Virus record (IMG/VR): IMGVR_UViG_3300042862_000073
Location: 1-56,794 of that record
Length of the DNA: 56,794 nucleotides
Source: a virus
Lineage: Duplodnaviria; Caudoviricetes
Strand: one strand, 5' to 3'
A program made the position numbers and the translations under genes. This document shows positions 1 through 54,452 of the stretch, one piece after another. The notes beneath the pieces are model-generated. The model did no database searches. It was not told the DNA's origin and saw only the letters and a program-made list of their open reading frames with translations. How positions within the stretch are numbered: the first letter of the stretch is position 1; every line of letters starts with the position of its first letter.

Positions 1-141
1 GCAAAGCAAATGATGAAGGAGCAACACGAAGAAACTTGGTTTAGTAGTAGAGTAGAAGATATGGGTGATGAATTTAAGGTGGAGCAAAAGTCATTTGAGG
101 ACTACTATAACGAAACTTACGGAGGTCAAGATGAAAACTAA
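1..141 (+). CDS. Hypothetical phage protein, 5' truncated
   Basis: Frame 1 open from window edge: AKQMMKEQ...EDYYNETYGGQDEN*; overlaps next start. Confidence 0.6.
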   Translation, partial: AKQMMKEQHEETWFSSRVEDMGDEFKVEQKSFEDYYNETYGGQDEN

Positions 142-301
142 AACGGTAGAAAGGCTCCTCAAGGAAATAGAGAATAGGCCCTGGCATCTTAAACTAAGGG
201 ACTGGTGGAACATTAAACGATGGGTATGGACCTGTAGAACTAGATTCATTTGGGATCTGAGTTATGAACGTAATATCTTTAGAAAAAAGAACAATGGCTG
301 A
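131..301 (+). CDS. Hypothetical protein
   Basis: ATG at 131 (MKTKTVERL...) overlaps upstream stop; preferred to the ORF-track start at 65. Confidence 0.6.
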   Translation: MKTKTVERLLKEIENRPWHLKLRDWWNIKRWVWTCRTRFIWDLSYERNIFRKKNNG

Positions 302-491
302 TATAAGTAAGTGCATAGGGACAGATTGTCCCCACAAAGAAAAGTGCTACCGATTTACAGCACCGGCTAACGAGTACGCCCAAGCCTATTTTACGGAGCC
401 GCCAATCAAGGAGGACGGAACCTGCGATATGTTCTGGGGAAAGACACAGACAGACATCCTCTCCCAACTCAAGGAGATTGTCAAGGGATAG
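294..491 (+). CDS. Small Cys-rich phage protein
   Basis: MADISKCIGTDCPHKEKCYRF...C pattern; ATG 294 overlaps previous stop. Confidence 0.7.
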   Translation: MADISKCIGTDCPHKEKCYRFTAPANEYAQAYFTEPPIKEDGTCDMFWGKTQTDILSQLKEIVKG

Positions 492-1372
492 CGTGACAAA
501 TCCTCACGCCTTCAAAAATTGTCAAGATATCGTTTTACCTTTTGGATTTTTTTGTCCTGCAAGTCAATGACTTTTCGTGACAAATACATAGGTAAAAATG
601 TTACCACACTATAGTATGGTATAACAGTCATTAACCCCAATTTCACAGGCTAATGCATAGTATATCATACTTTAATGTGGTTTAGGTAAAATGGCAAACC
701 TCTCCCTTATAAGGAGCATAGCCGCCTAATTTTATCCCTCTAATGACATCTTATGAGTTAGATGCTATAAACCACACCTGTCCGATATAAGCGGACAACC
801 AACAAAAGACAGTGTTCTCATTTACTGGCAAATGTTTGATTGTGGAAAATAATCCCCAGAACAGGCGATATAGTGGAAAATAATCAATAAAGCATACACC
901 TTTATCAATCATAGTGGAAATATCAGTTTCAAACTGACAAGGGTGATATAAAACGCCATTACTAAAAAATCACAAGAGTATTGGCGAAATATAGAATGCC
1001 AAACTCCGTAACAAAAACACGCCAAACTCGGAAGTTCTCCGAATTACCTGCATGAATTTTTCCACAATCCCCATGCGCCATTGTCAAGTTTATTACGCAA
1101 AAAACTAGACACAAGCACCTAGGGACAACTCGTCCCCACAGCAACACACAAATCCCACCTACACCCGAAAACACCATTAGGTCGACTCCAACAGGATGGT
1201 AGATTATACCTTAACGCTGTACGAAAATTATACATTAAAGCAGTCGGCTACAAAACGTAACCAGCTGGTTAGTCCCACTACCCACCTGCATCAACCGGAA
1301 ACAGCCCTCCACCTTAGAGTGTTCCACAGGCGTTCCACAAGCTAACACATTGGCAGTCAGTTACATAGCTTT

Positions 1373-1388
1373 TGTTCCACGTGGAACA
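1373..1388. promoter_or_regulatory. parS: parS site (perfect palindrome)
   Basis: TGTTCCACGTGGAACA matches the conserved chromosomal parS consensus TGTTNCACGTGNAACA. Confidence 0.85.
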
Positions 1389-1405
1389 TAAGAGTACAGG
1401 TCATG

Positions 1406-1421
1406 CGTTTCACGTGAAACA
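1406..1421. promoter_or_regulatory. parS: parS site
   Basis: CGTTTCACGTGAAACA, one mismatch to TGTTTCACGTGAAACA. Confidence 0.8.
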
Positions 1422-1566
1422 TACATACATAAGCGTGGAACATCTGATTTAGGAAAGAGGCAGAACGTAGTGTAATGGGGGTCTATATACCATGTACAGC
1501 GCGGTGCTGTGTTCCGATGTCGTTTTTTGCGAAAGGGGTGCACCTACATTTGCAATGTGAATTTCG

Positions 1567-1582
1567 TGTTTCACGTGAAACA
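1567..1582. promoter_or_regulatory. parS: parS site (perfect consensus)
   Basis: TGTTTCACGTGAAACA. Confidence 0.9.
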
Positions 1583-1635
1583 AAGCAGCTTCTGTATTCC
1601 TTATTAATATACCAATACGAAATTCGTTGCTGCCC

Positions 1636-1658
1636 TTATTTAGAATGCGTCTAAATAA
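1636..1658. promoter_or_regulatory. Fur-box-like palindrome 1
   Basis: TTATTTAGA-ATGCG-TCTAAATAA, perfect 9-bp inverted repeat resembling the ATTTAGAAnnnnTCTAAAT Fur box as I recall it for Flavobacteriia. Confidence 0.6.
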
Positions 1659-1699
1659 CAAGAACACTAGGATATATAAAATATATTTCGTAATACAAA

Positions 1700-1715
1700 A
1701 TTTCCACGTGAAAAG
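1700..1715. promoter_or_regulatory. Degenerate parS site
   Basis: ATTTCCACGTGAAAAG; 12-bp core kept, outer bases diverged. Confidence 0.5.
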
Positions 1716-1730
1716 CAAATGTGAACCGCT

Positions 1731-1749
1731 ATTTAGAACGAGTATAAAT
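1731..1749. promoter_or_regulatory. Fur-box-like palindrome 2
   Basis: ATTTAGAACGAGTATAAAT. Confidence 0.5.
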
Positions 1750-1836
1750 TAGCAGCAAATTTGCATATCCCAATTTAATTCCGTATACGTGCGCGCGCGC
1801 CTGTTTCCTTATATGCAAAGAGAGAATAGGGTGCTT

Positions 1837-1855
1837 ATGTAGAATGCTTCTAAAT
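1837..1855. promoter_or_regulatory. Fur-box-like palindrome 3
   Basis: ATGTAGAATGCTTCTAAAT. Confidence 0.55.
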
Positions 1856-1863
1856 AACACATT

Positions 1864-1876
1864 TAACCTATTGATA
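1864..1876 (-). promoter_or_regulatory. IHF-like site
   Basis: Reverse complement TATCAATAGGTTA fits WATCAANNNNTTR. Confidence 0.4.
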
Positions 1877-1919
1877 TTCAGTTACTTAAATAAAAGATGC
1901 AAAAATAATTGCAAAAAAA

Positions 1920-1952
1920 TTTGCATTCACCTCTTCGAATGACGTATGTTTG
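1920..1952 (+). promoter_or_regulatory. Bacteroidota sigma70 promoter (early)
   Basis: TTTG (1920) - 21 bp - TATGTTTG (1945), the -33/-7 consensus, with A-tracts upstream. Confidence 0.75.
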
Positions 1953-2109
1953 CAGTGTCAATCAATTACAGCAACGGCAGTAAGAGTGACAGCGAAAAAA
2001 GTTCATTAAGAAAAAAGGGCATATCTCCTAATGGGATAACTACGCCCTGGTGGTGACCACACGTTAAACGGAGCTTAATGGGATAACTATGTACTAAATA
2101 TAAATAACT

Positions 2110-2313
2110 ATGGAAATTCAAGATTCGTCCTCGGTGTACTATTCTATGCCCGATGCAAGAAAACAGGTGTTCAAAGTAGGTCGTGTCACACGATGTGCTA
2201 AAAAGGTATGGGTGCAAGATAAACGCGACCAAGTGTTTAATGGGGTTTGCCGCATTATTCAACAGGGGGAACGTGCACAATTGCAGCGCGACACTAGACG
2301 GGCGAAGCGTTAG
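2110..2313 (+). CDS. Hypothetical early protein
   Basis: A-rich leader AAATAACTATG; first ORF after the promoter. Confidence 0.5.
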   Translation: MEIQDSSSVYYSMPDARKQVFKVGRVTRCAKKVWVQDKRDQVFNGVCRIIQQGERAQLQRDTRRAKR

Positions 2314-2332
2314 AATACGGAACGGCAACGGC

Positions 2333-2348
2333 TGTTCCACGTGAAACA
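2333..2348. promoter_or_regulatory. parS: parS site
   Basis: TGTTCCACGTGAAACA. Confidence 0.85.
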
Positions 2349-2401
2349 TTATTAGCATAGTGGTGACCACACTATAAACGGACAGACGGAAAGTACACAC
2401 A

Positions 2402-2417
2402 TGTTCCACGTGAAACA
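2402..2417. promoter_or_regulatory. parS: parS site
   Basis: TGTTCCACGTGAAACA. Confidence 0.85.
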
Positions 2418-2495
2418 TTGGTGCAAGGTACAACCTCGTGAAAGCCGAGGTCATGTAATATGCTACGCTCAAACCAATTAAATTTTACGTGCTTT

Positions 2496-2837
2496 ATGGA
2501 AAAGAATGTATCCTTTGTACTTACGCAAGAGAATGACTCTGCGTTTTATCTTCGTGGCGGCTTCGAATTTTCGGGGTCGGTAGAAGATGCATCTAGCGAA
2601 ATGACGTTTCGCGTTATCAAGTTTATGGAACGTGTCAAGAAGTTCCGTATGAAAACCAATTTCAAGTTCGGTAAAAAGTTCACCATCGATATGACTATTG
2701 ACGGGAAAACCTACCGAAGCACCGACCTGTACTTCGCCTTCGATGATTCGGGCAAGGATTGTAATGGGGCAATAACTCTCTCTATGAAACGCTCTACTAT
2801 CTTTATGGATTTAGTGCAAGAAATGATTGAGGCATAA
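2496..2837 (+). CDS. Hypothetical early protein
   Basis: Likely start MEKNVSF at 2496; followed by a terminator. Confidence 0.7.
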   Translation: MEKNVSFVLTQENDSAFYLRGGFEFSGSVEDASSEMTFRVIKFMERVKKFRMKTNFKFGKKFTIDMTIDGKTYRSTDLYFAFDDSGKDCNGAITLSMKRSTIFMDLVQEMIEA

Positions 2838-2861
2838 TTCGGCGGCTATTCAAATTTCAAT

Positions 2862-2882
2862 GGGGCTTCGTGCCCCTTTTTC
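2862..2882 (+). terminator. Rho-independent terminator
   Basis: GGGGC-TTCGT-GCCCC-TTTTTT. Confidence 0.75.
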
Positions 2883-2919
2883 TATTCAATCAAGTAAAAC
2901 CAATAAATAAATAAACAAC

Positions 2920-3123
2920 ATGGACAAGATCCTAAAACCCTTCATTGTGTTCATCACACATTGCGCTTTGTACAGTGCAACCTACATCACGGCATGTGCA
3001 CTCATTGCCCTAACATTCTGGACTAACTATGTTCAGATAGTACAGCACCCTGCGGCTATTGTCGCTATACTTATCACCGTGCTTTGTCACCTTACATTAA
3101 CCCTTTCAAATTCTAAACTATGA
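2920..3123 (+). CDS. Small membrane protein
   Basis: Two hydrophobic segments; AAACAACATG start context. Confidence 0.65.
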   Translation: MDKILKPFIVFITHCALYSATYITACALIALTFWTNYVQIVQHPAAIVAILITVLCHLTLTLSNSKL

Positions 3124-3284
3124 AAAGAAGTAATGCCCTAGTGCTGCTATACTTTGCAGCTATGTTATTGGCGGCTTCGATGGTGTCGTGTTCATCAAGT
3201 CAACACGGCTACGACTACAAGTCACATCAGAAGCGAAGCGGACACGGTCCAAGCAAGTGTTATGAAAAGCATAATAAATGGTAA
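3120..3284 (+). CDS. Small putative lipoprotein (54 aa, not in ORF track)
   Basis: MKRSNALVLLYFAAMLLAASMVSC signal with lipobox; ATGA overlap with previous gene. Confidence 0.65.
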   Translation: MKRSNALVLLYFAAMLLAASMVSCSSSQHGYDYKSHQKRSGHGPSKCYEKHNKW

Positions 3285-3302
3285 CCAATACAAATAAATA
3301 TC

Positions 3303-4532
3303 ATGTCAGAAAACAATTCAAACGTGCAGGTTGAAGATCTAGTAGACCTGTACAATGGCGAAGTAGCACTACGTAGCGAGTGCTTCATGTTTACAATCGG
3401 TCAATACGATGACCAATGGTATCACAAGGACGATGAGGGTGTCCTCACCATGACTTCGGGTGCTGTATGTCACACGGATGATGAAGATGATGTAAACCAC
3501 ACTACCTGCGGTGACTCCTTCCATAACGATGAGCAGGGCGACTGCGATATTGTATGGTGTGAGTATGACGACCTATACGCCTATGAAAATGACTGCGAGT
3601 ACGGTTATATCAATCGACGTACCGAAGGCTACTTCCTACGTGATGACAATGACTATGTAGAGTGTGACGGCACCTACTACCGTAACGATGATGTAGCTAA
3701 CTTCAACGACGTCTACTACTACGATTCAGTCAACGAGTACCGACACATTGACGATGCACCTGCTGATGATGATGACGAAGATGACGATACATATCTAGCG
3801 CAGTATCACAGCGGTGACCGAGCATGGCGTGTAGACAAGACTACTCCGTGGACAATGGGCTTCGAGGTCGAGAAGGAGGACAGGGATATACGTAATTCAT
3901 GCTTCCATGATGACCTACCTAACGATTGGACCAAAGAACGTGACGGCTCACTCTCAGATAGCTCTGGCTTTGAGCTTATCTCTCCTGTGTATAATCTCTT
4001 TGACAGGCTACACGAAGATGATATTGCGGCTTCGAGTTTGTTACGTAACCACATCAACGCCAAGCACAGCAAGTCATGCGGTGGTCACATTCATATCGGC
4101 AGTAAGTTGTATACAACCGAGCAATTGTTCCAGGGTATTAGCGGCTTCCTTCCTGTACTATACTCCCTGTATGAGAGTAGGGTTGATGTCACCTACTGCA
4201 AGGCTAAAAAGAAACACGAGTATCTCAACCGAGATAAGTACTCAGCCGTGTATGTGCGTGACACTACGGTAGAGTTTCGTATCTTCCCTGCGGTCAAGTC
4301 GGTAGACAATCTCAAATGGCGCATCGACCTGCTACGTATCATGGTACGCAACTTCGGTAAGTCAGAGCGTGACATACTGACTATGCTGTGTGACCGCAAA
4401 TCTATTCTTCATGAGCATCTGCTCAAGGTTATTGATGCAGACAAGATGCTGCAGAAGGTAGCCCTATTCGTCAAGTACTCGTCCATCTACAACGATACTA
4501 ACCTAGACGATCAATCAACTGATATTAACTAA
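3303..4532 (+). CDS. Putative amidoligase (COOH-NH2 ligase type 2) with acidic N-terminal extension
   Basis: GFEVEKE, ERDGSL, GFELISP, SCGGHIHIG and TVEFRIF motifs. Confidence 0.8.
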   Translation: MSENNSNVQVEDLVDLYNGEVALRSECFMFTIGQYDDQWYHKDDEGVLTMTSGAVCHTDDEDDVNHTTCGDSFHNDEQGDCDIVWCEYDDLYAYENDCEYGYINRRTEGYFLRDDNDYVECDGTYYRNDDVANFNDVYYYDSVNEYRHIDDAPADDDDEDDDTYLAQYHSGDRAWRVDKTTPWTMGFEVEKEDRDIRNSCFHDDLPNDWTKERDGSLSDSSGFELISPVYNLFDRLHEDDIAASSLLRNHINAKHSKSCGGHIHIGSKLYTTEQLFQGISGFLPVLYSLYESRVDVTYCKAKKKHEYLNRDKYSAVYVRDTTVEFRIFPAVKSVDNLKWRIDLLRIMVRNFGKSERDILTMLCDRKSILHEHLLKVIDADKMLQKVALFVKYSSIYNDTNLDDQSTDIN

Positions 4533-4546
4533 TAATTTACAAGACT

Positions 4547-5434
4547 ATGTGTATAGCAATCTTAAACCCTAATAACGTAACCCTTAAAAAGAAGGTCCTC
4601 AAGACCTGTTGGGAAAATAATACTGACGGAGCAGGTATGCTCTATCTAGCAGACGGCAAGTTAACTACTCATAAGGAGATGACTAACTTCGATTCATTCT
4701 ATGACCACTACTCTAATGTGCGTAAGCAATACAAGACTAGTCAAGTAGTCATACACTTTCGTATCTCTACTCATGGTAAGGTCAATCTAACTAACTGTCA
4801 CCCCTTTATTGTTAATGACAAGTGGGGATTTGTACATAATGGTATTATCTCGGCGGCTCCGAAGAACGAGGAATTTAGCGACACGTATATGTTCAACCGC
4901 GAGATACTACAAAAGCTACCTACCGACTGGATACATAACGATGCTATCTATGACCTCGTGCAGGAATATATCGGCAGCTCTAAGCTATTGTTCCTTAACA
5001 CCAACAACGAGGCATTCATTGTCAATGAGGATTGGGGTGTGTGGGACTTAGGCTGTTGGTTCAGTAACTCTACCTACAAGGCATCACGCTACTATGACTA
5101 CGGTGGTACTAAGGTCTACAAGGGTACGAGTGCGGCAGCGCCCACTATCACGCCTTCCCTCCCCACAGGCAAGTGGGATTCGTGGGACGATGATGATGTA
5201 GACACGTGGAACGATAGCTTCGACTACAAGTGGAACGCAACCACAGGAAAGTATGACCGTGTAACTGTAGAAAAGGAGGAGGAGTACACATCTAATCCGT
5301 GGGACACTAAAGACGAGCCTACCTACGATGACCGATGTGAGTCATGTATGGAAGATAAGGAATGCCGGTATGACTACGGCTACGATTGTAGTGTGTGCAA
5401 GGAGTGTGCAGATAGTATTCACCAACCATTCTAA
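4547..5434 (+). CDS. Class II (Ntn) glutamine amidotransferase
   Basis: N-terminal MC nucleophile, NxDGAG, HFRISTHG, NCHPF, HNG, SDT motifs; acidic tail ending in CxxC..CxxC. Confidence 0.88.
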   Translation: MCIAILNPNNVTLKKKVLKTCWENNTDGAGMLYLADGKLTTHKEMTNFDSFYDHYSNVRKQYKTSQVVIHFRISTHGKVNLTNCHPFIVNDKWGFVHNGIISAAPKNEEFSDTYMFNREILQKLPTDWIHNDAIYDLVQEYIGSSKLLFLNTNNEAFIVNEDWGVWDLGCWFSNSTYKASRYYDYGGTKVYKGTSAAAPTITPSLPTGKWDSWDDDDVDTWNDSFDYKWNATTGKYDRVTVEKEEEYTSNPWDTKDEPTYDDRCESCMEDKECRYDYGYDCSVCKECADSIHQPF

Positions 5435-8942: not shown

Positions 8943-9159
8943 TCTACTCAATAGAGCCCAGAAGGTAGTCAGATGGTTCGGTGTTAAGGACAGGGACCCA
9001 AAAAGAACAGCACGGGTATACTTCCCTGAATACTACAGGGGTATGATGCGTGTGTTTCGACAGGCGTGCTTCACCTTCACCGATGATGACGTAACTAGAT
9101 GGGAGGAATTAATAAGAATACTAACAGCTCAGGAAAGGGCAACAAGAAAACAAAAATGA
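8932..9159 (+). CDS. Hypothetical protein
   Basis: TTG start overlapping previous gene; fills operon gap. Confidence 0.5.
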   Translation: MKADLLNRAQKVVRWFGVKDRDPKRTARVYFPEYYRGMMRVFRQACFTFTDDDVTRWEELIRILTAQERATRKQK

Positions 9160-9527
9160 CACGACCAGCAAAAAGGATAAAGGCTCCGGCTGCTAAGCGC
9201 ATAACGAGAGCCGATAAGATTAGACGTGCCTATGAACTAAAGGCTCGTGTATATCAAGCGTTAAACATGGCAGGACTTGACACTACACTAAAGTATCTAC
9301 CCTATGCAAAGAACTTTGACCTACTATTTGTAGCTCTTGAACCCGATGCTAACGAGCGTCGCATTAGACTACGTAGGATTATTAGCGGCGTTCCAAAAGT
9401 AGATGACGCATTTTGGATTGAAGTACTACACCGCTACTGCTCAGAGATATATCAGGTATCAAGATTCTTCTGCGCATTTACCTACCACCCTGGTATGCTA
9501 GATCTACCATCAACCAATCAAAAATAA
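9156..9527 (+). CDS. Hypothetical basic protein
   Basis: ATGA-coupled start MTRPAK. Confidence 0.6.
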   Translation: MTRPAKRIKAPAAKRITRADKIRRAYELKARVYQALNMAGLDTTLKYLPYAKNFDLLFVALEPDANERRIRLRRIISGVPKVDDAFWIEVLHRYCSEIYQVSRFFCAFTYHPGMLDLPSTNQK

Positions 9528-9845: not shown

Positions 9846-10700
9846 ATGAACTATTTTGAACTAGACGGAATAAACTATTCCTCATTAAAGCTTTACCACA
9901 AAAGCCCACTCCATTTCAAATGGAACCAGGACAACAGAAAGGATTCAACCGAAGCACAAAAGCTAGGTACTCTTGTCCATACGCTCGTTCTTGAGCCACA
10001 CCATATGGATAATGAATATACTATCCTTGATGTTGACAAGCGTCCTAATCGTGATGCCGACTTCCGTAACTCAGAGAACAAGCTATGGAAGCAGGTTATC
10101 ATTGAGGAGGCGGCTAGACACGGACGCATGGTAATCGACATCGACACCTACAATCAGGCTAAGGGTATGGCGGACAATGTACTACGCATCCCTGCCGTGC
10201 AGAAGCTTCTTGCATCAGCAACGATTGAACACGGTATTTCATGGACAGATCCTATGACTGGTCTATTGTGTAAGGGTAAGCCTGACGGATACAATACAGC
10301 ATCTAAGCTTGTGTTTGACCTTAAGACAACTATCTCTGCACACCCTACCGACTTTCAACGTGCTATATGGAACTATCGTTATCATGAGCAGGCGGCGTTC
10401 TATATTAATGGGTTGAACGCTGTTCATGGCGAGGATACATTCAAACGCTTCCTATTCATTGTTGTTGAGAAGGAGCCACCATACGCTGCGTCAGTATTTA
10501 TGCTAGCGGAATCAGCTATCAATGTTGGTTGGATTACCTGTCAATCACTACTCAACCTGCATAAGCAGTGCGTAGACAATGATGACTGGTCAGCACAATA
10601 CGACATTCTATCTAGCCATAGCTCAGGTGTTATGGATATGGATCTACCCGACTTTGCCTACATGAAGGCAGAGAATGATGAGTTAACTAATCAATTCTAA
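9846..10700 (+). CDS. recE: RecE/exonuclease VIII-like PD-(D/E)XK nuclease (DUF3799 type)
   Basis: SxLK...SP, GTLVHTLVLEP, CKGKPD, DLKTT, YHEQAAFY, VEKEPPY motifs; adjacent to RecT. Confidence 0.88.
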   Translation: MNYFELDGINYSSLKLYHKSPLHFKWNQDNRKDSTEAQKLGTLVHTLVLEPHHMDNEYTILDVDKRPNRDADFRNSENKLWKQVIIEEAARHGRMVIDIDTYNQAKGMADNVLRIPAVQKLLASATIEHGISWTDPMTGLLCKGKPDGYNTASKLVFDLKTTISAHPTDFQRAIWNYRYHEQAAFYINGLNAVHGEDTFKRFLFIVVEKEPPYAASVFMLAESAINVGWITCQSLLNLHKQCVDNDDWSAQYDILSSHSSGVMDMDLPDFAYMKAENDELTNQF

Positions 10701-10702
10701 AT

Positions 10703-11515
10703 ATGAACAAAGCAGTAGAAATCAAAAAGTTCGAAAGCCAAGTAAAGGCCTACGAAGAAACCATCACCAAGCTAGTTGGTAACAAGTATGGTATCACAGC
10801 AGACGAGTTCGCTATGTCTGTTATGACAGCAGTAAAAAAGACACCTAAGCTACTTAATTGTGACCGAGGTTCTCTCTTTGCGGCTGTCCTTTTATCAGCG
10901 GAGCTAAAGCTTCCCTTCAACACACCATCAGGATTCTCCTACATCATTCCATACGGTAATGAGGCGCAGTTCCAGGTAGGTTACAAGGGGCTAGTAGAAA
11001 TTGCCTACCGTAACCCACGAGTTAAGTCGGTATATGCCGGTGTTGTATATCAAGATGAGGTTGCGGCAGGGCTATTCAGATACTCACGAGGTATGGATGT
11101 CATCCTCGAACACACACCGATTATGAACAGAACACCAGAGCAGGAACGTGAGAAGGAGGTGTACTGTACATACGGTATTGTTAAGCTTGAGGGTGCTGAC
11201 CCAATCATTGAGGTGCTTGACGCCAATCAACTTAATGCTATCAAGAAGATCAGCAAGGGTGCAGGTTCACAATCAAGTCCCTACAATAATGGTACAGACA
11301 TAGCCGATTGGATGTATAAGAAGGCGGCTATCAAACAATGCCTCAAGACAGTACCTAAGCAGGGTGTACCTGAGATAGCTATGGCTGTTGAGGTGGATGA
11401 CAAACTATCTTCAGGCAGTAGAGCAATCATCAACGAGGATGGCGGTGTAGAGATACAGGACGTGGACTTCGTTGAAAAGCATGAAGCTAAGGACGAAATC
11501 TTTAATGACCTATGA
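10703..11515 (+). CDS. recT: RecT-family single-strand annealing protein
   Basis: PKLLNCDRGSL, YIIPYGNEAQFQVGYKGLVEIAYR, MYKKAAIK..LKTVP motifs. Confidence 0.9.
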   Translation: MNKAVEIKKFESQVKAYEETITKLVGNKYGITADEFAMSVMTAVKKTPKLLNCDRGSLFAAVLLSAELKLPFNTPSGFSYIIPYGNEAQFQVGYKGLVEIAYRNPRVKSVYAGVVYQDEVAAGLFRYSRGMDVILEHTPIMNRTPEQEREKEVYCTYGIVKLEGADPIIEVLDANQLNAIKKISKGAGSQSSPYNNGTDIADWMYKKAAIKQCLKTVPKQGVPEIAMAVEVDDKLSSGSRAIINEDGGVEIQDVDFVEKHEAKDEIFNDL

Positions 11516-13157: not shown

Positions 13158-13449
13158 ATCCCTTCTTGGTACTTTTACCATTAGATCCATTGCGAGCACG
13201 ATTCTTTGAAGCGGCTTCCTTTACTGTACGGCCCGACTTGGTATGGCTCATGTCCTTACCGTCTCCATTACCTTCAGTACCTGCTCTTCTATTGGCTTTA
13301 TTTAAACCACTTCTATATGCTACACGCTCAGGTGTAGATTGATACTTAGTATCATACGCAAGTTTCTTCTTGCGGCTTTCAGGATTTTCTGCATAACCTT
13401 TAGCAGATTTACTAGTTCCTGTAGACTTTCCAGCCAATTTATTTCTCAT
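13156..13449 (-). CDS. Small basic phage protein (degenerate HNH-like)
   Basis: K/R-rich; GDGKDMSH..G...KNRARN pattern. Confidence 0.7.
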   Translation of the reverse strand: MRNKLAGKSTGTSKSAKGYAENPESRKKKLAYDTKYQSTPERVAYRSGLNKANRRAGTEGNGDGKDMSHTKSGRTVKEAASKNRARNGSNGKSTKKG

Positions 13450-13450
13450 A

Positions 13451-13600
13451 TCATTTCTTTTTTTTAGCTTTGATAGCCTTCTCCTGCTTTAACATAGCTT
13501 CTGTAGGCTTCTTACCTGAACCCTTCTTAGCTCGGATGTTATCCCAAAGTCCTCTTTGAGATGTGCTGCCATCCTTTCTTTTAATCATTTCCTTTTTCAT
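13451..13600 (-). CDS. Small basic protein (49 aa, not in ORF track)
   Basis: MKKEMIKRKDGSTSQRGLWDNIRAKKGSGKKPTEAMLKQEKAIKAKKKK. Confidence 0.7.
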   Translation of the reverse strand: MKKEMIKRKDGSTSQRGLWDNIRAKKGSGKKPTEAMLKQEKAIKAKKKK

Positions 13601-13734
13601 TTACCTTGACCAACATTAAGTTTAATATAGTTCTTTGAACCTTTAATCTTAGATGAATTGTTCTTTGAATGTACACCTGGTCTCTTAACCTTAGGTTTCT
13701 TTTTGAATGTAGTTACATTAGATACTTTTGCCAT
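13597..13734 (-). CDS. Small basic protein (45 aa, not in ORF track)
   Basis: MAKVSNVTTFKKKPKVKRPGVHSK...NVGQGK; ATGA-coupled to the next gene. Confidence 0.7.
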   Translation of the reverse strand: MAKVSNVTTFKKKPKVKRPGVHSKNNSSKIKGSKNYIKLNVGQGK

Positions 13735-13750
13735 TGTTGTATTGTTTCAA

Positions 13751-13758
13751 CAAATATA
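13751..13758 (-). promoter_or_regulatory. Bacteroidota -7 promoter element
   Basis: TATATTTG on the - strand 16 nt upstream of ATG 13734. Confidence 0.55.
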
Positions 13759-14137
13759 ACATGCTAGAGGTAGATTTGAGTCACGAGCAGGTACAAAAAG
13801 TGCTATGTATTACGCATACTTTTCATACCATTACATGCTATCGGTGAGTTTTTCGCCTTTCGCTTTGGCTGACAACGGAAAGTGCTTGGTCCTGACTTGT
13901 CATTTAAACTTGTTATTATTTCTCGACGCATAGAGATATGAGTGGCTCTGTTACCAGTACGGCTGTATTACTTCCGTTACCCTACACGTCTGCCTGACTA
14001 TTCCAACCGGCGAGGCTACTTTTTCATTCGGCACGAAGGTGTAGCAAACCAAGACTTAGAAAAAAAGAAAATCCCATACACCAGATCACATAACATACTG
14101 ATGCAGGGATTTGTATTATTCCGGTATGTGATCGGGA

Positions 14138-49706: not shown

Positions 49707-52016
49707 TTATAGATTACCTGATATTTCTACTTCTTTTTGCTTCTCCAAAGTACCTTCTTGTGCAAGCTCAGCCATTCTATGGTTGTGTTTAACTTGTTCA
49801 AGTAGCGCCTTTTGCTGATACTCGGTAAGCATTTGATCTGTTTTTAATTGTTGAACAGCCATGTCAGCTTGTGCCTTAGCTTGCTGAGCCATCATAGCCG
49901 ACTGTTGTTGCGCCTGTGCATTCATCTGCATCATCTTCTCCTTTTGACCTTGAATCTCGCGCTTAGAACGCTCTTCTGACAAAGTCAAATACCATGAAGC
50001 AAACTCATCGTTCCCCTTCTCAAGTTCCTTCTCTATAAATAGATAGTCACCCATTGTAATTCCAGGCTGACCGCTTTTACCTACTTTCATAGATTCTAGG
50101 GCGGCTTGCATAATTATCTGTTTGCGTTGAGCTGAAGGAGTTGAAACTAATGTGATTCCAATTTGGTCAAGAGTCAAATCCTCAAATGAATTTAAGGCAT
50201 TCATCTTCTCTTTACCTAATAGATTAGAATAATACTTCTCTACCTCTTTATCAAACTTAATATTCGTTCTAGTCATAAGGATAGCCTTTCTAGCAGCCTT
50301 CTCCTTAAATCTCATCAATGCCTTTTTAAGAGGATACATCGCGTGGTTAGTTGAATCAACTTCCATTTGAGCTAATCCTAATCCCTGTTCGGAATTATTT
50401 GTAGGTTGAGCAGCCATAGCAGGAGTAATACCTGCAAGGTCCATAATACGATTCATGTCATCCTGCCAGCAGGTTAACCATTCTTGAAGCTGTGGTCCTA
50501 TTCCTCCAGGAAGTTCCTGAATAGAGCTAGCTCCACCACCCTTGTTTAATATGTCTGTCTTAGACTGAATGAATTGATTACCTGTTTGACGGCGGATACG
50601 AATAAGCTCCAATGGAGTCATCTTACCAAATCCCATATCCATATTAGACAATAATCCAATATCAATCATAAGACCTTTAGGTGCTGCACTCCATTTAGCG
50701 GCTTGCAACTTAATCCATGTCAACATTAATGAGTCAAGATGCGGCTTCCATCTTTCAACGATAGCCTTTCCTGGGACACGCTCAAAGAAATAGCTTAAAG
50801 CTACGTTTCCTTTAGAGTCACGCATCATATTCTTTTGCATACCGTAATCGTAAACGAATCTAGTACCCAAAATATAATTTCCTGTGTACAAGTTCTGCAC
50901 GCAGGTTACGTCTGTCTTTCTCTTACGTCCGTCAGCATATGGCTTTTTAATAACGCCATACTCTTCAGGAGCATATACATAAGTTCCGTCCTTCTTCTCA
51001 CGACCTGTAAAATAGTCGTAGTCATTAGACTTGTATTCAAAGTGAAGAACTTCAACAACGAAATCCTCCCAAATATAACGTCCTGTTACAGGGTCCTTGC
51101 GATTGAAGTTAAAATCCTTATCGCTATAACCTTGAGTTTCATAATATATTCTCGCAAGCTGCTCGAGGTCTTGTGGACTAGCACCCAAATTAAGTAGCTT
51201 ATGCTTAATATCCTTAATTTGAACCCTCTCAATATGGCCTGCAAATGCCGGTTCTGCTTCTTCACTTTCGTCAATATATGCTGTTACAAATGCTGCTGGA
51301 TTAATAAACTTCATCTTTGTTGATCCATCATCATCAGTATAGACACGCCCAACGCAAAAATTAGTTTCAATTAATTTCTCAATTGTTCTCAATCTAATCT
51401 TATCCCAATCACTAATTTGAAATACGTGCTCTGCGATATCAGCCATTGCCATTTCCAACGGCAACTTAAAGCCATGATATCTCTCGTACATATCTAATTC
51501 CGTTTCGTTAGCAGGAACCCAAGGATAATCCTTAGTAGGGATTCCAATCTGCTCGCGTAGTGGATTGATTAGCTTATCATCATAATACAATTTCCACTTC
51601 TCATAAGCCTTTTGATAGCTAGCCTCCTGATTCAAAGATTCAACATGAACTTTAAAATCACTTGCGCTAAGCATAGACTTAATTGTAGAAATGAATTTAG
51701 GAGCAGGACTCACAATCTCATAACTAACGTTGGTATATGCCTTACGAGAATATTCTGTGAAGTTTCTATCCGTACTATTCTTATCATTCTTAGTTCCTAG
51801 GAACCAGTCGCGATACGGCGCTGAAGATTGTCTTGACTCGGCGTAGTCGGTCATCATTTGAAACCATCCTGTAGCACTATGGCCAAACAGGGTTCTTCCA
51901 TTATACCATCTTGAATAGATAGCTTGACCCACCTGGCTAATAAAGCTAAGCGACTCTTTTTGCTCTCTAGGTACATTATCGGACGGAAAACCGATTATTT
52001 CGCTGAATTTCAACAT
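49707..52016 (-). CDS. Portal protein
   Basis: 769 aa after TerL; FP.D.V....K start, PKF motif, Q-rich C-terminal helical barrel. Confidence 0.85.
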   Translation of the reverse strand: MLKFSEIIGFPSDNVPREQKESLSFISQVGQAIYSRWYNGRTLFGHSATGWFQMMTDYAESRQSSAPYRDWFLGTKNDKNSTDRNFTEYSRKAYTNVSYEIVSPAPKFISTIKSMLSASDFKVHVESLNQEASYQKAYEKWKLYYDDKLINPLREQIGIPTKDYPWVPANETELDMYERYHGFKLPLEMAMADIAEHVFQISDWDKIRLRTIEKLIETNFCVGRVYTDDDGSTKMKFINPAAFVTAYIDESEEAEPAFAGHIERVQIKDIKHKLLNLGASPQDLEQLARIYYETQGYSDKDFNFNRKDPVTGRYIWEDFVVEVLHFEYKSNDYDYFTGREKKDGTYVYAPEEYGVIKKPYADGRKRKTDVTCVQNLYTGNYILGTRFVYDYGMQKNMMRDSKGNVALSYFFERVPGKAIVERWKPHLDSLMLTWIKLQAAKWSAAPKGLMIDIGLLSNMDMGFGKMTPLELIRIRRQTGNQFIQSKTDILNKGGGASSIQELPGGIGPQLQEWLTCWQDDMNRIMDLAGITPAMAAQPTNNSEQGLGLAQMEVDSTNHAMYPLKKALMRFKEKAARKAILMTRTNIKFDKEVEKYYSNLLGKEKMNALNSFEDLTLDQIGITLVSTPSAQRKQIIMQAALESMKVGKSGQPGITMGDYLFIEKELEKGNDEFASWYLTLSEERSKREIQGQKEKMMQMNAQAQQQSAMMAQQAKAQADMAVQQLKTDQMLTEYQQKALLEQVKHNHRMAELAQEGTLEKQKEVEISGNL

Positions 52017-52076: not shown

Positions 52077-54452
52077 CTAATCAAAAAATTCTAGCAGGTT
52101 GTCCATAACTCTCGTTGAATTAGCCTCTTGCATATATTTAGGAAAGGCACTCTTAGCTCCAAGCAGAGCCATTCCTCCTGCGGCAAATAAGTCATAGTTA
52201 GTCATCTCGCTAGGGTCATTAATCTCAAGACACTCCTCTAAAAGTTCTATGTGGTTATCACCTTTCCCAAATAGGCGGATGTAATTCATGTACTCAGTAA
52301 AGATTTGTTCCTTGTCGGCTTCCGTTGTATATCGACCTGGAGCTTGGGCTAACTTCCCATTAGGATCTAAATCATTTAGTAGATATCCCTCATAACCCCA
52401 CTCACGGAACTTATCAATAACGATAGGCACGTTACGCTCAGGATAAACATGCGCTCCAAATAGAATAGCTAACTTCAACATATCCTCGCAATAGGTGTTA
52501 CCGTCATCAACACGAATGTTGTACGTTACAACAAATTTATTGCTTATCCATTGGTCAACCGGCTTATCCATACTATCAAATGCTGGATCGTGCTTATAAA
52601 ACATAGCACCACCACCATTAGACTTCCTACGGCCCTTCACGTCCCTGTTATTGAACTTAAATGGGTCACACCCTAATATGTATCTATTTACAACATCAGG
52701 TGAAGGATACCATGTGTTTGCCTCGCTATCGAAGTACTTCTTATTCCTCTGGTCCTCTGATGGTATATATGAAACAACATACTTTCCTTCCGGATCATCT
52801 GTAACTCTAACATTACTTCCAAATGCACCTACCCAATCTAATCTAACCGTTCTAGTTCTAAACAGTCGGTCAAACTTTAATTGGTTAATACGTGTTCTAA
52901 GAATAGAAAGGTCGAAGTTGTTATTCTTACTTGCTTTAGAGGCGGCTTCCTGAAGTGTCCAGGGGTTATCCCTAATCTCTCCATTTAATCGTAGGTCAAG
53001 TCCCTTCTCCTCTAAATCCTTTCTTGTATTCATTAAGATTGTTTTGGATCCTCTGGAAACCATGTTTCCCTCCAAATTTCTAATAGGCTCCATTGGATCT
53101 TCAATGATTGAGTTGCCGTACTCGTCCACACATTCGTCATAGCCGTCATATGCGGGGACGAAAAGGGTGTATAATCCGCTTGTTGTAAATCCGTTTTCGT
53201 TTCGCTCATCGTAATATGAAGATTTAATTAGATCAAAAAATTCTTTACCCCCACCTGCCTCGAACTCACCAAGTGTTGATGTGAACATGGCTAATCCGTT
53301 AATACGCAAACCTTGAGATAGACATTTACGAACAACGTCCTGCCATCTTCTTGGAATAGATACACCTGAGTCACCATGCTTACCACCCTCATCATCTAGA
53401 TAGGCGTGCAGCTTCTGTCCATCAAATGCCCTTTCACTAGATGCACGCGATTCAATCCAACCGTCATGGCTAGATATTCTATTTTGAGCTACCCCTTGTG
53501 TTCTTGCAGCAGGATATGTAAACGATAACTTTTCCTTTGGGAAGTCAGTTCCGTCATGAGCAGGTTTCAAAAAGAACGGTATCTTTCTCCAAGGTTTAAT
53601 TACCTTGTCTATATAAACGTCCTCCTTAGCCTGACGCTCTGTGATGGATTGTATTCCACCCTTCTGTTGTTTGCGTTCTGTTGTGATACAATACAATATA
53701 CAGGCGGCTTGCGAAGTTGCTCCAATACGGCGGCGTTTAGGAAAGATGTAACCATAGCAGGTTCTATATCCCATATCCACAACATATTTACCCTCATCAA
53801 CATAGGCTGCTGGATGCTTAGAAGCAAAATCTTCTGCATTCTTTACTCGTTGAAAGAACTTAGTTTTAATGTTACCCTCATTTCTGTAAGTAACCCTGTA
53901 TTTATAAACAGCCTCAGTTGTTGTATAGCAGTGCTTTGCAAAAATAAATATGCGGCGATCCAAATCTCGATACCACGGAAGTGAATCCTGTCGAGTTTCA
54001 TTTTGAATATCCCAGTAGTTAAGATAGATATAATGCCAACCATCTATGTATGTTGGCACTCCATTATTGAAGAACCAGTATCCCTGATAACGTCTTTTGA
54101 TTTGAACTTGAATCCACTCAATCTCATTTCTATACTCAAGTCGATTAGACTCCAACTCAGAATATATATCCTCCTGCGTAACAGCCTCCCTCTTCTTTAA
54201 CTTGTTCTTCTTCCGGATAATCTCTTGTATGCTCTTTAGCTTCTCAGGAACCTCCTGATGCTTAAACCTTTGATTTTTAGGATGCAGGCCATATCCATCA
54301 ATAAGTTGAATTGCCTCATCCCAATCTTTACCATAGAAGGATTCAACCGAAGGAAGCTTTATCTTAATCGTTTCAAGGATAGGGTCATGCTCGTGATACA
54401 CGGCATACTCTAGTTCCTGCTTATATTCGTTATGCCATTTACTAGTTGCCAA
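52077..54452 (-). CDS. terL: Terminase large subunit
   Basis: KRRRIGAT Walker A variant, YLDDEGGK Walker B, FTST coupling motif, ILGCDPF nuclease motif, late D..AAGGMAL. Confidence 0.92.
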   Translation of the reverse strand: MATSKWHNEYKQELEYAVYHEHDPILETIKIKLPSVESFYGKDWDEAIQLIDGYGLHPKNQRFKHQEVPEKLKSIQEIIRKKNKLKKREAVTQEDIYSELESNRLEYRNEIEWIQVQIKRRYQGYWFFNNGVPTYIDGWHYIYLNYWDIQNETRQDSLPWYRDLDRRIFIFAKHCYTTTEAVYKYRVTYRNEGNIKTKFFQRVKNAEDFASKHPAAYVDEGKYVVDMGYRTCYGYIFPKRRRIGATSQAACILYCITTERKQQKGGIQSITERQAKEDVYIDKVIKPWRKIPFFLKPAHDGTDFPKEKLSFTYPAARTQGVAQNRISSHDGWIESRASSERAFDGQKLHAYLDDEGGKHGDSGVSIPRRWQDVVRKCLSQGLRINGLAMFTSTLGEFEAGGGKEFFDLIKSSYYDERNENGFTTSGLYTLFVPAYDGYDECVDEYGNSIIEDPMEPIRNLEGNMVSRGSKTILMNTRKDLEEKGLDLRLNGEIRDNPWTLQEAASKASKNNNFDLSILRTRINQLKFDRLFRTRTVRLDWVGAFGSNVRVTDDPEGKYVVSYIPSEDQRNKKYFDSEANTWYPSPDVVNRYILGCDPFKFNNRDVKGRRKSNGGGAMFYKHDPAFDSMDKPVDQWISNKFVVTYNIRVDDGNTYCEDMLKLAILFGAHVYPERNVPIVIDKFREWGYEGYLLNDLDPNGKLAQAPGRYTTEADKEQIFTEYMNYIRLFGKGDNHIELLEECLEINDPSEMTNYDLFAAGGMALLGAKSAFPKYMQEANSTRVMDNLLEFFD

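Follow-up and report, generated by a model that had tools for sequence, protein, structure and literature searches.

Clusters of short DNA sites in non-coding DNA are known from several settings. Iteron-containing origins carry phased tandem repeats with an inverted partial copy nearby and dyads, are present at one locus per genome and have partition sites adjacent to them. Titration loci, such as datA of E. coli and incA of P1, are also non-coding, and here one site is repeated many times for one protein. In T4-like phages, the free-standing homing endonuclease loci (seg/mob) consist of GIY-YIG-type open reading frames (ORFs) lying in intergenic DNA, and these are present in some genomes only. 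Another kind of intergenic element is the PeSL of T4-type phages. In the parts of the literature consulted, PeSLs are described as conserved intergenic stem-loop motifs that flank variable, non-essential early ORFs and mediate modular exchange (PMC2839356; PMC4122927), each being a promoter and terminator unit present in many copies per genome (PMC2839356). The present text deals with positions 491-1290 of a virus record of 56,794 nucleotides from IMG/VR, the whole of which is called the window. An earlier note, made from the sequence alone, had described this stretch as a library of different short palindromes and a candidate decoy array for host DNA-binding proteins. Our own reading, to which we give about one chance in two, is that 491-1290 is a single-copy, fixed-order, cis-acting DNA control region (an origin and/or an early-operon control) common to a broad set of uncultured freshwater phages.

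A repeat core within ordered, single-copy blocks

ORFs of at least 60 amino acids (aa) on the transcribed strand cover 92.6% of the window. When a gap is defined as a stretch without such an ORF on the locally transcribed strand, the largest one of the record lies at 492-2109 (1,618 bp), and 491-1290 is its left half; the runner-up, at 13343-13941, has 599 bp. The claim of some 800 bp without a credible ORF amid dense coding was thus borne out.

Conservation in the region is highest not in a palindrome but in two 13-bp direct repeats on the plus strand (842-885), arranged as GTGGAAAATAATC-N18-GTGGAAAATAATC, with copies at 842-854 and 873-885 that are 31 bp apart, start to start. A degenerate third copy, ATAGTGGAAATATC, follows on the plus strand at 911-924, 41 bp after the second one. 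Because of this phasing by 31 and 41 bp, the repeats come to lie on the same face of the helix. Further on, the block TGCATGAATTTTTCCACA...CATGC (1049-1076) contains TTTTCCAC (1058-1065), an inverted partial copy of the repeat core, 175 bp downstream. Besides one contig of a genome collection, the pair was found in 36 viral contigs and 38 metagenome contigs, with 57 distinct instances. Its spacer, which is partly conserved in sequence, has 18 nt in 56 of these and 17 nt in one. A third copy within 120 nt is seen in only 13 of the 57, and the 1049-1076 block is present within 330 nt of the pair in 37.

Eighty loci were fetched via the neighbouring gene for a 75-aa Cys-rich protein, and others via the repeat pair. 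Among the 80, the 13-mer is present in 19. In the block alignment, whose loci were fetched via the neighbouring protein and not the repeat pattern, both 13-mers are exact in 11 of 13 distinct sequences. In each of five near-complete genomes (64-123 kb), the 13-mer is present just two times and nowhere outside the pair.

The non-coding stretch as a whole is a mosaic, in which short conserved blocks (~575-684, 752-885, 997-1067, 1173-1200 and 1258-1284) alternate with variable DNA. Coverage was counted as distinct hit patterns (n=58) per 20-nt bin. It reaches 40-54 patterns at 831-890, which holds the repeat pair, 22-39 at 991-1070, 19-31 at 571-690 and 18-26 at 751-830; the values are 6-9 at 491-570, 691-750 and 891-950, and 1-12 at 1111-1290. 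The blocks are collinear with the window in 36 of the 36 loci that have at least three of them, which is to say that a block may be missing but is never rearranged. No block of 481-2500 has a second copy elsewhere in the window, and each dyad occurs once within 491-1290. The earlier note had suggested aligning the locus across related phages to see whether its motifs are conserved and shuffled as units; the blocks are indeed conserved, but shuffling was not observed.

In short-form relatives, a Bacteroidota-type promoter closely follows the array. In 7 of 32 distinct loci, the first plus-strand ORF is directly preceded by a perfect TTTG-N17-23-TANNTTTG, 85-304 nt downstream of the repeats. The motif was derived from what we take to be the Bacteroidota promoter consensus, TTTG/TAnnTTTG, and its matches are the basis of the putative host label ‘Bacteroidota’ used here.

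From these patterns, a working scheme can be proposed. Sequence-specific proteins, either phage-encoded or of the host, would assemble on the array of repeats and dyads, with TGTCCG-N7-CGGACA, AAYTCGG-N7-CCGARTT and CGTRACA-N16-TGTYACG flanking the core as sites at fixed spacing. The nucleoprotein complex may then act as the replication origin of the phage and/or as the switch of the early operon, the host-type promoter being just downstream. Cassettes would enter, and phages would exchange DNA, preferentially at the array. We infer the binding of proteins, the identity of the binder and the role in origin function or transcription from sequence patterns.

Several points weigh against this scheme. 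No gene family adjoins the repeats in more than 14 of the 32 loci, and no initiator-like gene was found among the window proteins scanned, in a record that is 86% complete. An iteron origin would be expected to have more than two or three repeats, and the nearest AT-rich stretches (1601-1700 and 1801-1900, with GC minima of 26-30%) are at least 700 bp away from the repeats. The strict promoter is close behind the array in only those seven loci and is 1 kb away in the window. In the loci that were found by the repeat pattern, the invariance of the 13-mer is by construction. The resemblance of the repeats to DnaA boxes, for which TTWTNCACA was presumed as the consensus, is weak. There are five perfect matches in the window, two of them at 841-849 and 1058-1066. 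The ninth position, just before copy 1, varies (T 36, A 17 and C 4 of the 57), and matches with at most one mismatch are depleted window-wide, at 105 against 151 +/- 12 in shuffled sequence, with four in 841-1328. The DnaA boxes are treated here as a lead only.

Palindromes as DNA sites, RNA helices or decoys

All eleven palindromes of the earlier note were found where it had placed them. Their fate was followed as the pairs kept, counted among distinct homologous sequences, and the list turned out to be a mixture of conserved dyads and lineage-specific or probably chance ones. As a set, it held in part: several dyads have operator-like geometry and fixed spacers, but only about 3-4 of the 11 are kept as palindromes. 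TGTCCG-N7-CGGACA (779-797) retains all six pairs in 11 of 13 homologues and belongs to block B (752-838), which also includes the conserved ACTGGCAAATGTTTG at 822-836. For GGTAA-N5-TTACC (591-605), 13 of 15 homologues retain at least four of the five pairs. A larger dyad, CGTGACA-N16-TGTTACC, encloses this palindrome in block A (575-607); relatives have CGTAACA...TGTTACG at this place, so that the dyad across phages reads CGTRACA-N16-TGTYACG, and the word CGTRACAAA recurs at 492, 576 and 1006. For TCGGA-N5-TCCGA (1028-1042), all five pairs are kept in 8 of 14 homologues and at least four in all 14. Here too a larger dyad, AACTCGG-N7-CCGAATT (1025-1045), encloses the palindrome, and its form across phages is AAYTCGG-N7-CCGARTT. 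TCAGTTT-C-AAACTGA (923-937) has six of seven pairs in three of three homologues; in relatives it is TCAGG-ATGAA-CCTGA, with one compensatory change, a single event.

The remaining palindromes are less well kept. GCGTGA-N7-TCACGC (491-509), which abuts the stop codon of the Cys-rich gene (264-491), has all six pairs in none of seven homologues and five pairs in two, and is lineage-specific. The palindrome at 561-573 is fully kept in one of two homologues and that at 705-714 in none of four. TTGGC-N12-GCCAA (981-1002), present in three of six, counts as partly kept, as do 591-605 and 923-937. GGGAC-N5-GTCCC (1122-1136) has a single, near-identical homologue and is uninformative. In TAACCAGCTGGTTA (1258-1271), all seven pairs are kept in none of four homologues, and only the half TAACCA(A/G)CT is conserved. 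The palindrome at 603-620 is imperfect (six of seven pairs), is fully kept in none of 12, and forms the left arm of a long imperfect inverted repeat at 602-684 (arms ~602-622 and ~664-684). Seven sequences have this inverted repeat in conserved form, and one of its pairs shows a compensatory change (A-U to G-C). The inverted repeat is missing from the earlier list, as are the direct repeats at 842-854, 873-885 and 911-924; the list was accurate in its positions, but the strongest features of the stretch were absent from it. Two other elements may be mentioned here. Two direct copies of GCCAAACTC are present on the plus strand within 997-1035 (~997-1005 and ~1021-1029, coordinates read off the sequence). 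The block ACCAT-N18-ATGGT (1173-1200) has an internal GTCGAC, and in short-form relatives GGTTAG-N6-TAACCAACT and the promoter come after it.

The excess of self-complementarity in 491-1290 is real, modest, about two-fold, and present on both strands. With arms of at least 5 and loops of at most 12, there are 18 inverted repeats against 9.2 +/- 3.0 in 500 dinucleotide shuffles, and three of the 500 attain 18. Palindrome density is therefore above the shuffled controls against which the earlier note had wished it compared. The excess weakens with longer arms: 6 against 2.4 +/- 1.6 (fraction 0.04) for arms of at least 6, and 2 against 0.6 +/- 0.8 (fraction 0.116) for arms of at least 7. Record-wide, 800-bp windows have a mean of 10.4 inverted repeats (sd 3.7, maximum 22). 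Folding gives a similar picture, the z-scores of 400-nt windows being alike on both strands. They are -3.67 (plus) and -4.15 (minus) at 491-890, and -3.53 and -2.41 at 891-1290, with 25 shuffles each, whereas the lowest and highest values among 15 windows located from 2091 onward are -1.92 and +0.92. Folds of 800 nt have z-scores of -3.80 on the plus strand and -6.76 on the minus strand (20 shuffles).

Folds that are stabler than shuffled sequence on both strands are also what a structured non-coding RNA, or a long leader or 3' untranslated region, might give. Such an RNA would be transcribed with the plus-strand early genes or antisense to them, and its hairpins would act in stability, processing or protein sponging. 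Read-through is plausible, as no plus-strand terminator-like site is present from the upstream gene to 2862, and thus none in 491-1290, which also has no U-tailed terminator; a twister-sister ribozyme at 2416-2481 could release the transcript. Single compensatory changes are seen at 923-937, in the hairpin 602-684 and in a dyad that relatives carry upstream of the repeats (GTCGCAA/TTGCGAC vs GTCACAA/TTGTGAC). The window lacks this dyad, GTCRCAA-N12/13-TTGYGAC. Of its 39 variants, 14 are paired throughout, and several have other sequence in place of the left arm. We nevertheless consider the RNA reading unlikely. No Rfam family was found within 491-1290, either at the gathering threshold or at E<=5, and a search over 400-2600 at E<=5 gave the ribozyme, one chance-level match and nothing else. 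The covariation term of RNAalifold is minimal (-0.22 for the hairpin 602-684), and consistent compensatory changes on one strand were not found, only a few isolated pairs. In the best-sampled hairpin, AAYTCGG/CCGARTT, the arms are conserved and the 7-nt spacer is fixed in length but free in sequence. Its commonest variants are mismatched on the plus strand: counted by hand from the variants, the fifth pair is a mismatch in 25 of 41 distinct ones, Watson-Crick in 13 and G-T in 3. Helices other than this hairpin contain G-T pairs that can form on the plus strand only, so that no single strand suits all; from helix to helix, G-T pairs favour now the plus strand, now the minus strand. Furthermore, the most conserved elements are not stems but direct repeats in tandem, set at a fixed distance along the DNA, and 491-1290 has no match to TTTG-N17-23-TANNTTTG.

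A coding origin fares no better. Substitutions do not follow a three-base period (p 0.09-0.61), and the blocks contain gaps of 1, 7 and 11 nt. Micro-ORFs or a degraded gene were rejected on the absence of periodicity, on gap lengths that are not multiples of three, and because the identical repeats, being 31 nt apart, fall in different frames. By blastx, nothing was matched except spurious ORFs on the minus strand of homologous non-coding DNA; the endonuclease-like and phosphoadenosine phosphosulphate (PAPS)-reductase-like genes of relatives were not among the matches. Long chance ORFs are favoured on the minus strand, which is poor in A. Structured RNA and conserved micro-ORFs had been named by the earlier note as evidence that would speak against decoys. 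Both were looked for; micro-ORFs were rejected, and the RNA reading is held to be unlikely. On the whole, the patterns are less well explained by RNA helices or by coding sequence than by sequence-specific DNA sites, with transcription of the stretch being possible.

Behaviour as DNA sites is also the part of the decoy proposal that stood, along with the non-coding nature of the stretch. According to the proposal, host DNA-binding proteins would be titrated by these sites while phage genomes accumulate. The operator-like dyads with fixed spacers suit it, and so do the two DnaA-box matches at 841-849 and 1058-1066 and the six host-type parS sites that adjoin the array in an 86%-complete record without a ParB_N gene. 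The host sites with which the sequence was compared were the consensus sequences of parS and of the DnaA box. Independent decoys, however, need neither fixed order nor fixed position, and the order is constant in 36 of 36 loci, with a single-copy core in five of five near-complete genomes. One copy per dyad makes for a poor titration design, and conservation as a palindrome is lacking for 7-8 of the 11. Among bacterial and archaeal genomes (185,579 species), the repeat pair is present on one contig only, of 10.8 kb, from a metagenome-assembled genome. The arrangement is hence a phage feature and not a copied arrangement of host operators. The position of the array upstream of the early promoter in relatives likewise suggests action in cis. 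The decoy idea is therefore unsupported rather than refuted, failing on order, on copy number and, in part, on conservation, and we hold it to be very improbable.

The neighbourhood of the array and its cassettes

Downstream of the array, six chromosomal-type parS sites (GTTYCACGTGRAAC, at most two mismatches) are present at 1374-1387, 1407-1420, 1568-1581, 1701-1714, 2334-2347 and 2403-2416. The window has seven such matches, against 0.39 expected. The neighbouring parS of the earlier note was thus correct, in that a host-type cluster adjoins the array. No ParB_N domain was found in the 86%-complete record. parS sites come after the array in 5 of the 32 loci; similar clusters are seen in contigs L007, L090, L092 and L098, and parS also in L011. 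In lake metagenomes, contigs of other organisms touch the parS sites.

These sites raise another possibility, namely that the phage carries, in 575-2420, a mimic of the origin-proximal region of bacteria, where a single-copy array of DnaA-box-like repeats and dyads would join the six parS sites in recruiting host DnaA, ParB/SMC and other DNA-binding proteins. Neither ParB nor a DNA polymerase is seen in 86% of the phage genome. We regard the mimic as rather improbable. If true, it would mean plasmid-like replication and segregation of a carrier state in freshwater Bacteroidota, or host proteins drawn off the chromosome; the latter outcome would be a narrower and mechanistically specific form of the decoy idea.

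Going downstream from the array, one first meets a full match to the Bacteroidota-type promoter at 1920-1952 on the plus strand, TTTG-N21-TATGTTTG, and it is one of only two on that strand of the window. The other, at 13702-13730, lies in the second-largest gap (13343-13941), which has blocks conserved in the relatives G001, G006 and G008. Three TTTAGAAYG..TCTAAA dyads (1636-1657, 1730-1752 and 1835-1857; 93 and 106 bp apart) occupy the most AT-rich part, with 26-30% GC, and look like an operator set for the putative early promoter at 1920-1952. Between this promoter match and the first ORFs, exact direct repeats of TAATGGGATAACTA are found at 2029-2042 and 2076-2089. Two copies of GTGGTGACCACACNNTAAACGGA, 91% identical, are at 2050-2072 and 2360-2382, and a third, partial copy is at 600-613. 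The twister-sister ribozyme (plus strand; 38.4 bits, gathering score 34) starts where a parS site has its final base, and its end is 15 nt short of the ATG at 2496 (MEKNVSF...), a position in which it would cleave the 5' leader of that gene. It is conserved in L007 (8298-8363) and L142 (4176-4241).

Other promoter types were tried and rejected. The 13-mer as a dispersed promoter of a phage RNA polymerase was ruled out, as it occurs solely as the pair. The SP6/T7-like word CACTATAG, contained in GTKACCACACTATA at 600, 2053 and 2363, is confined to the non-coding stretch, and with up to three mismatches it shows no excess (7 vs 9.45 expected). Sigma-70-type promoters gave no signal in 1-3500 (7 sites vs 9.7 expected). 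A sigma-54-like reading of CTGGCAAATGTTTG was rejected by eye, its spacing being one base short of the consensus, as we presume it to be.

In relatives, endonuclease-like ORFs replace the stretch from ~604/618 to 654, which is the loop of the inverted repeat 602-684. The inserted ORFs, of ~160-206 aa, carry GIY-YIG and HTH_3 (L025 and others) or T5orf172 and HTH_3 (L010), and other small ORFs are found as well. Cassette ORFs with GIY-YIG or T5orf172 together with HTH_3 lie at 6319-6939 of L020, 6345-6965 of L025, 6265-6753 of L010 and 5539-6105 of L082, among others. The window looks like the empty site, that is, the cassette-free form. This form puts conserved intergenic blocks back to back, which gives the impression of a library of palindromes. 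In G001 and G006, a PAPS-reductase-like gene on the minus strand comes after the block 1258-1269, and the similarity to G001 (L003) stops at 1269. A group I intron (53.6 bits) was noted at 9067-9294 of the related contig L102.

The segment 103-1269 of the window, made up of the Cys-rich gene and the non-coding array (1.0-1.2 kb), is 99% identical to G006 and G001, while their large terminase is only 46% identical to that of the window at the protein level. Elsewhere, the window is 77-89% identical to G007, its closest collinear relative. Such identity despite diverged terminases points to a recent exchange of the module, and the best reading of these patterns is a hotspot for the insertion and exchange of homing-endonuclease-like cassettes. 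The near-identical segment in co-occurring phages is also the likely cause of the assembly breaks and contig ends here; lake metagenome contigs over the region are fragmented.

Those contig ends could also be read as a packaging or genome-end signal (pac/cos, or the boundary of a terminal repeat) recognized by the terminase. A single-copy cis site would suit such a signal. In L112, L106, L111 and L094, a gene for the large terminase or for a metallophosphoesterase is found no more than ~1 kb from the repeat pair, and contigs end less than 1 kb from the pair in the window, G001, L084, L106 and L112. In the complete relative G002, however, the pair at 16.3 kb and the terminase at 31.4 kb are 15 kb apart, and the 99%-identical shared segment, acting as an assembly repeat, explains the breaks equally well. 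A packaging role appears quite unlikely to us.

It may also be asked whether most of the stretch is functionless junction DNA, consisting of the flanks of lost cassettes and of homing sites. In that case the repeat core alone would be functional, and recombination and endonuclease target sites would have produced the excess of palindromes as a by-product. Cassettes do come and go; a population variant lacks 488-701 (one metagenome contig, run X6), G006 lacks 1092-1172, and the poorly covered intervals (491-570, 691-750, 891-950 and 1111-1290) are found in 1-12 of 58 patterns against 40-54 for 831-890. We find this reading doubtful all the same, for at least five separate blocks keep their order across phages of 58-123 kb with far-diverged proteins, and the excess of self-complementarity holds in the conserved blocks too.

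As for the record itself, it is linear, with a completeness estimate of 86%, and the sequence was traced to lake or freshwater metagenome runs (24 runs, with no RNA set listed among them). Small plus-strand ORFs occupy 1-17.5 kb, and structural genes on the minus strand follow, among them the portal gene (49707-52016) and the large terminase gene (52077-54452). A RecE/RecT-like pair is at 9846-11515. In the early region, amidoligase-like (PF12224) and class-II glutamine amidotransferase-like genes stand side by side (3303-5434). No tRNA or tmRNA was found in the window, and 400-2500 had no match among cultured phages (blastn, distant mode, 50,697 phage records).

Comparison with described control regions

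If the control-region reading is true, many uncultured lake phages (58-123 kb), forming a large group, would have the array in common as a non-coding hub, for which there is no match in cultured phages or in Rfam. It would offer a sequence handle for locating the origin or early-control region of these phages. It would also be a marked site of cassette insertion and exchange, and the near-identical segment that co-occurring genomes have in common would account for the assembly breaks here. A more general lesson is that conserved intergenic blocks, when they abut after cassette loss, can take on the look of a library of palindromes. The decoy concept would be new and important if true, though it is unsupported by the present data. 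Literature searches, whose returns were mostly irrelevant, brought up no report of this element, none of phage arrays that act as decoys for host regulators, and none of parS clusters in phages of this kind.

For the decoy idea, datA and incA are the nearest known relatives, the likeness being in clusters of binding sites that sequester a DNA-binding protein. In the array, by contrast, the sites are all different and single and have no known cognate protein. With the seg/mob loci, the array shares GIY-YIG-type ORFs that are present or absent at the same place and near-identical flanks between diverged genomes. Unlike in those loci, the predicted endonuclease-like ORFs carry HTH_3 and could equally be regulators. 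As in the PeSLs of T4-type phages, so far as these are described in the portions of the reports consulted, conserved intergenic motifs with stem-loops flank variable ORFs and mark the boundaries of exchange. The array differs from PeSLs, on the same partial accounts, in having neither a promoter match nor a U-tailed terminator in 491-1290 and in that every one of its blocks is single-copy.

The closest likeness is to iteron origins and control regions (lambda ori, P1 oriR/incA, F and the pPS10 type). These differ from the array, which has only two or three repeats, no adjoining initiator gene and no AT-rich unwinding element within ~700 bp, and whose repeat is 13 bp with a conserved spacer. 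What is shared comprises helically phased direct repeats, an inverted partial copy, dyads, a single locus and an adjacent cluster of partition sites. Thus, the region seems most like the iteron-type control regions, although it has no adjacent initiator and only few repeats. By kind, the array may be filed as a putative non-coding control or origin region of a phage.

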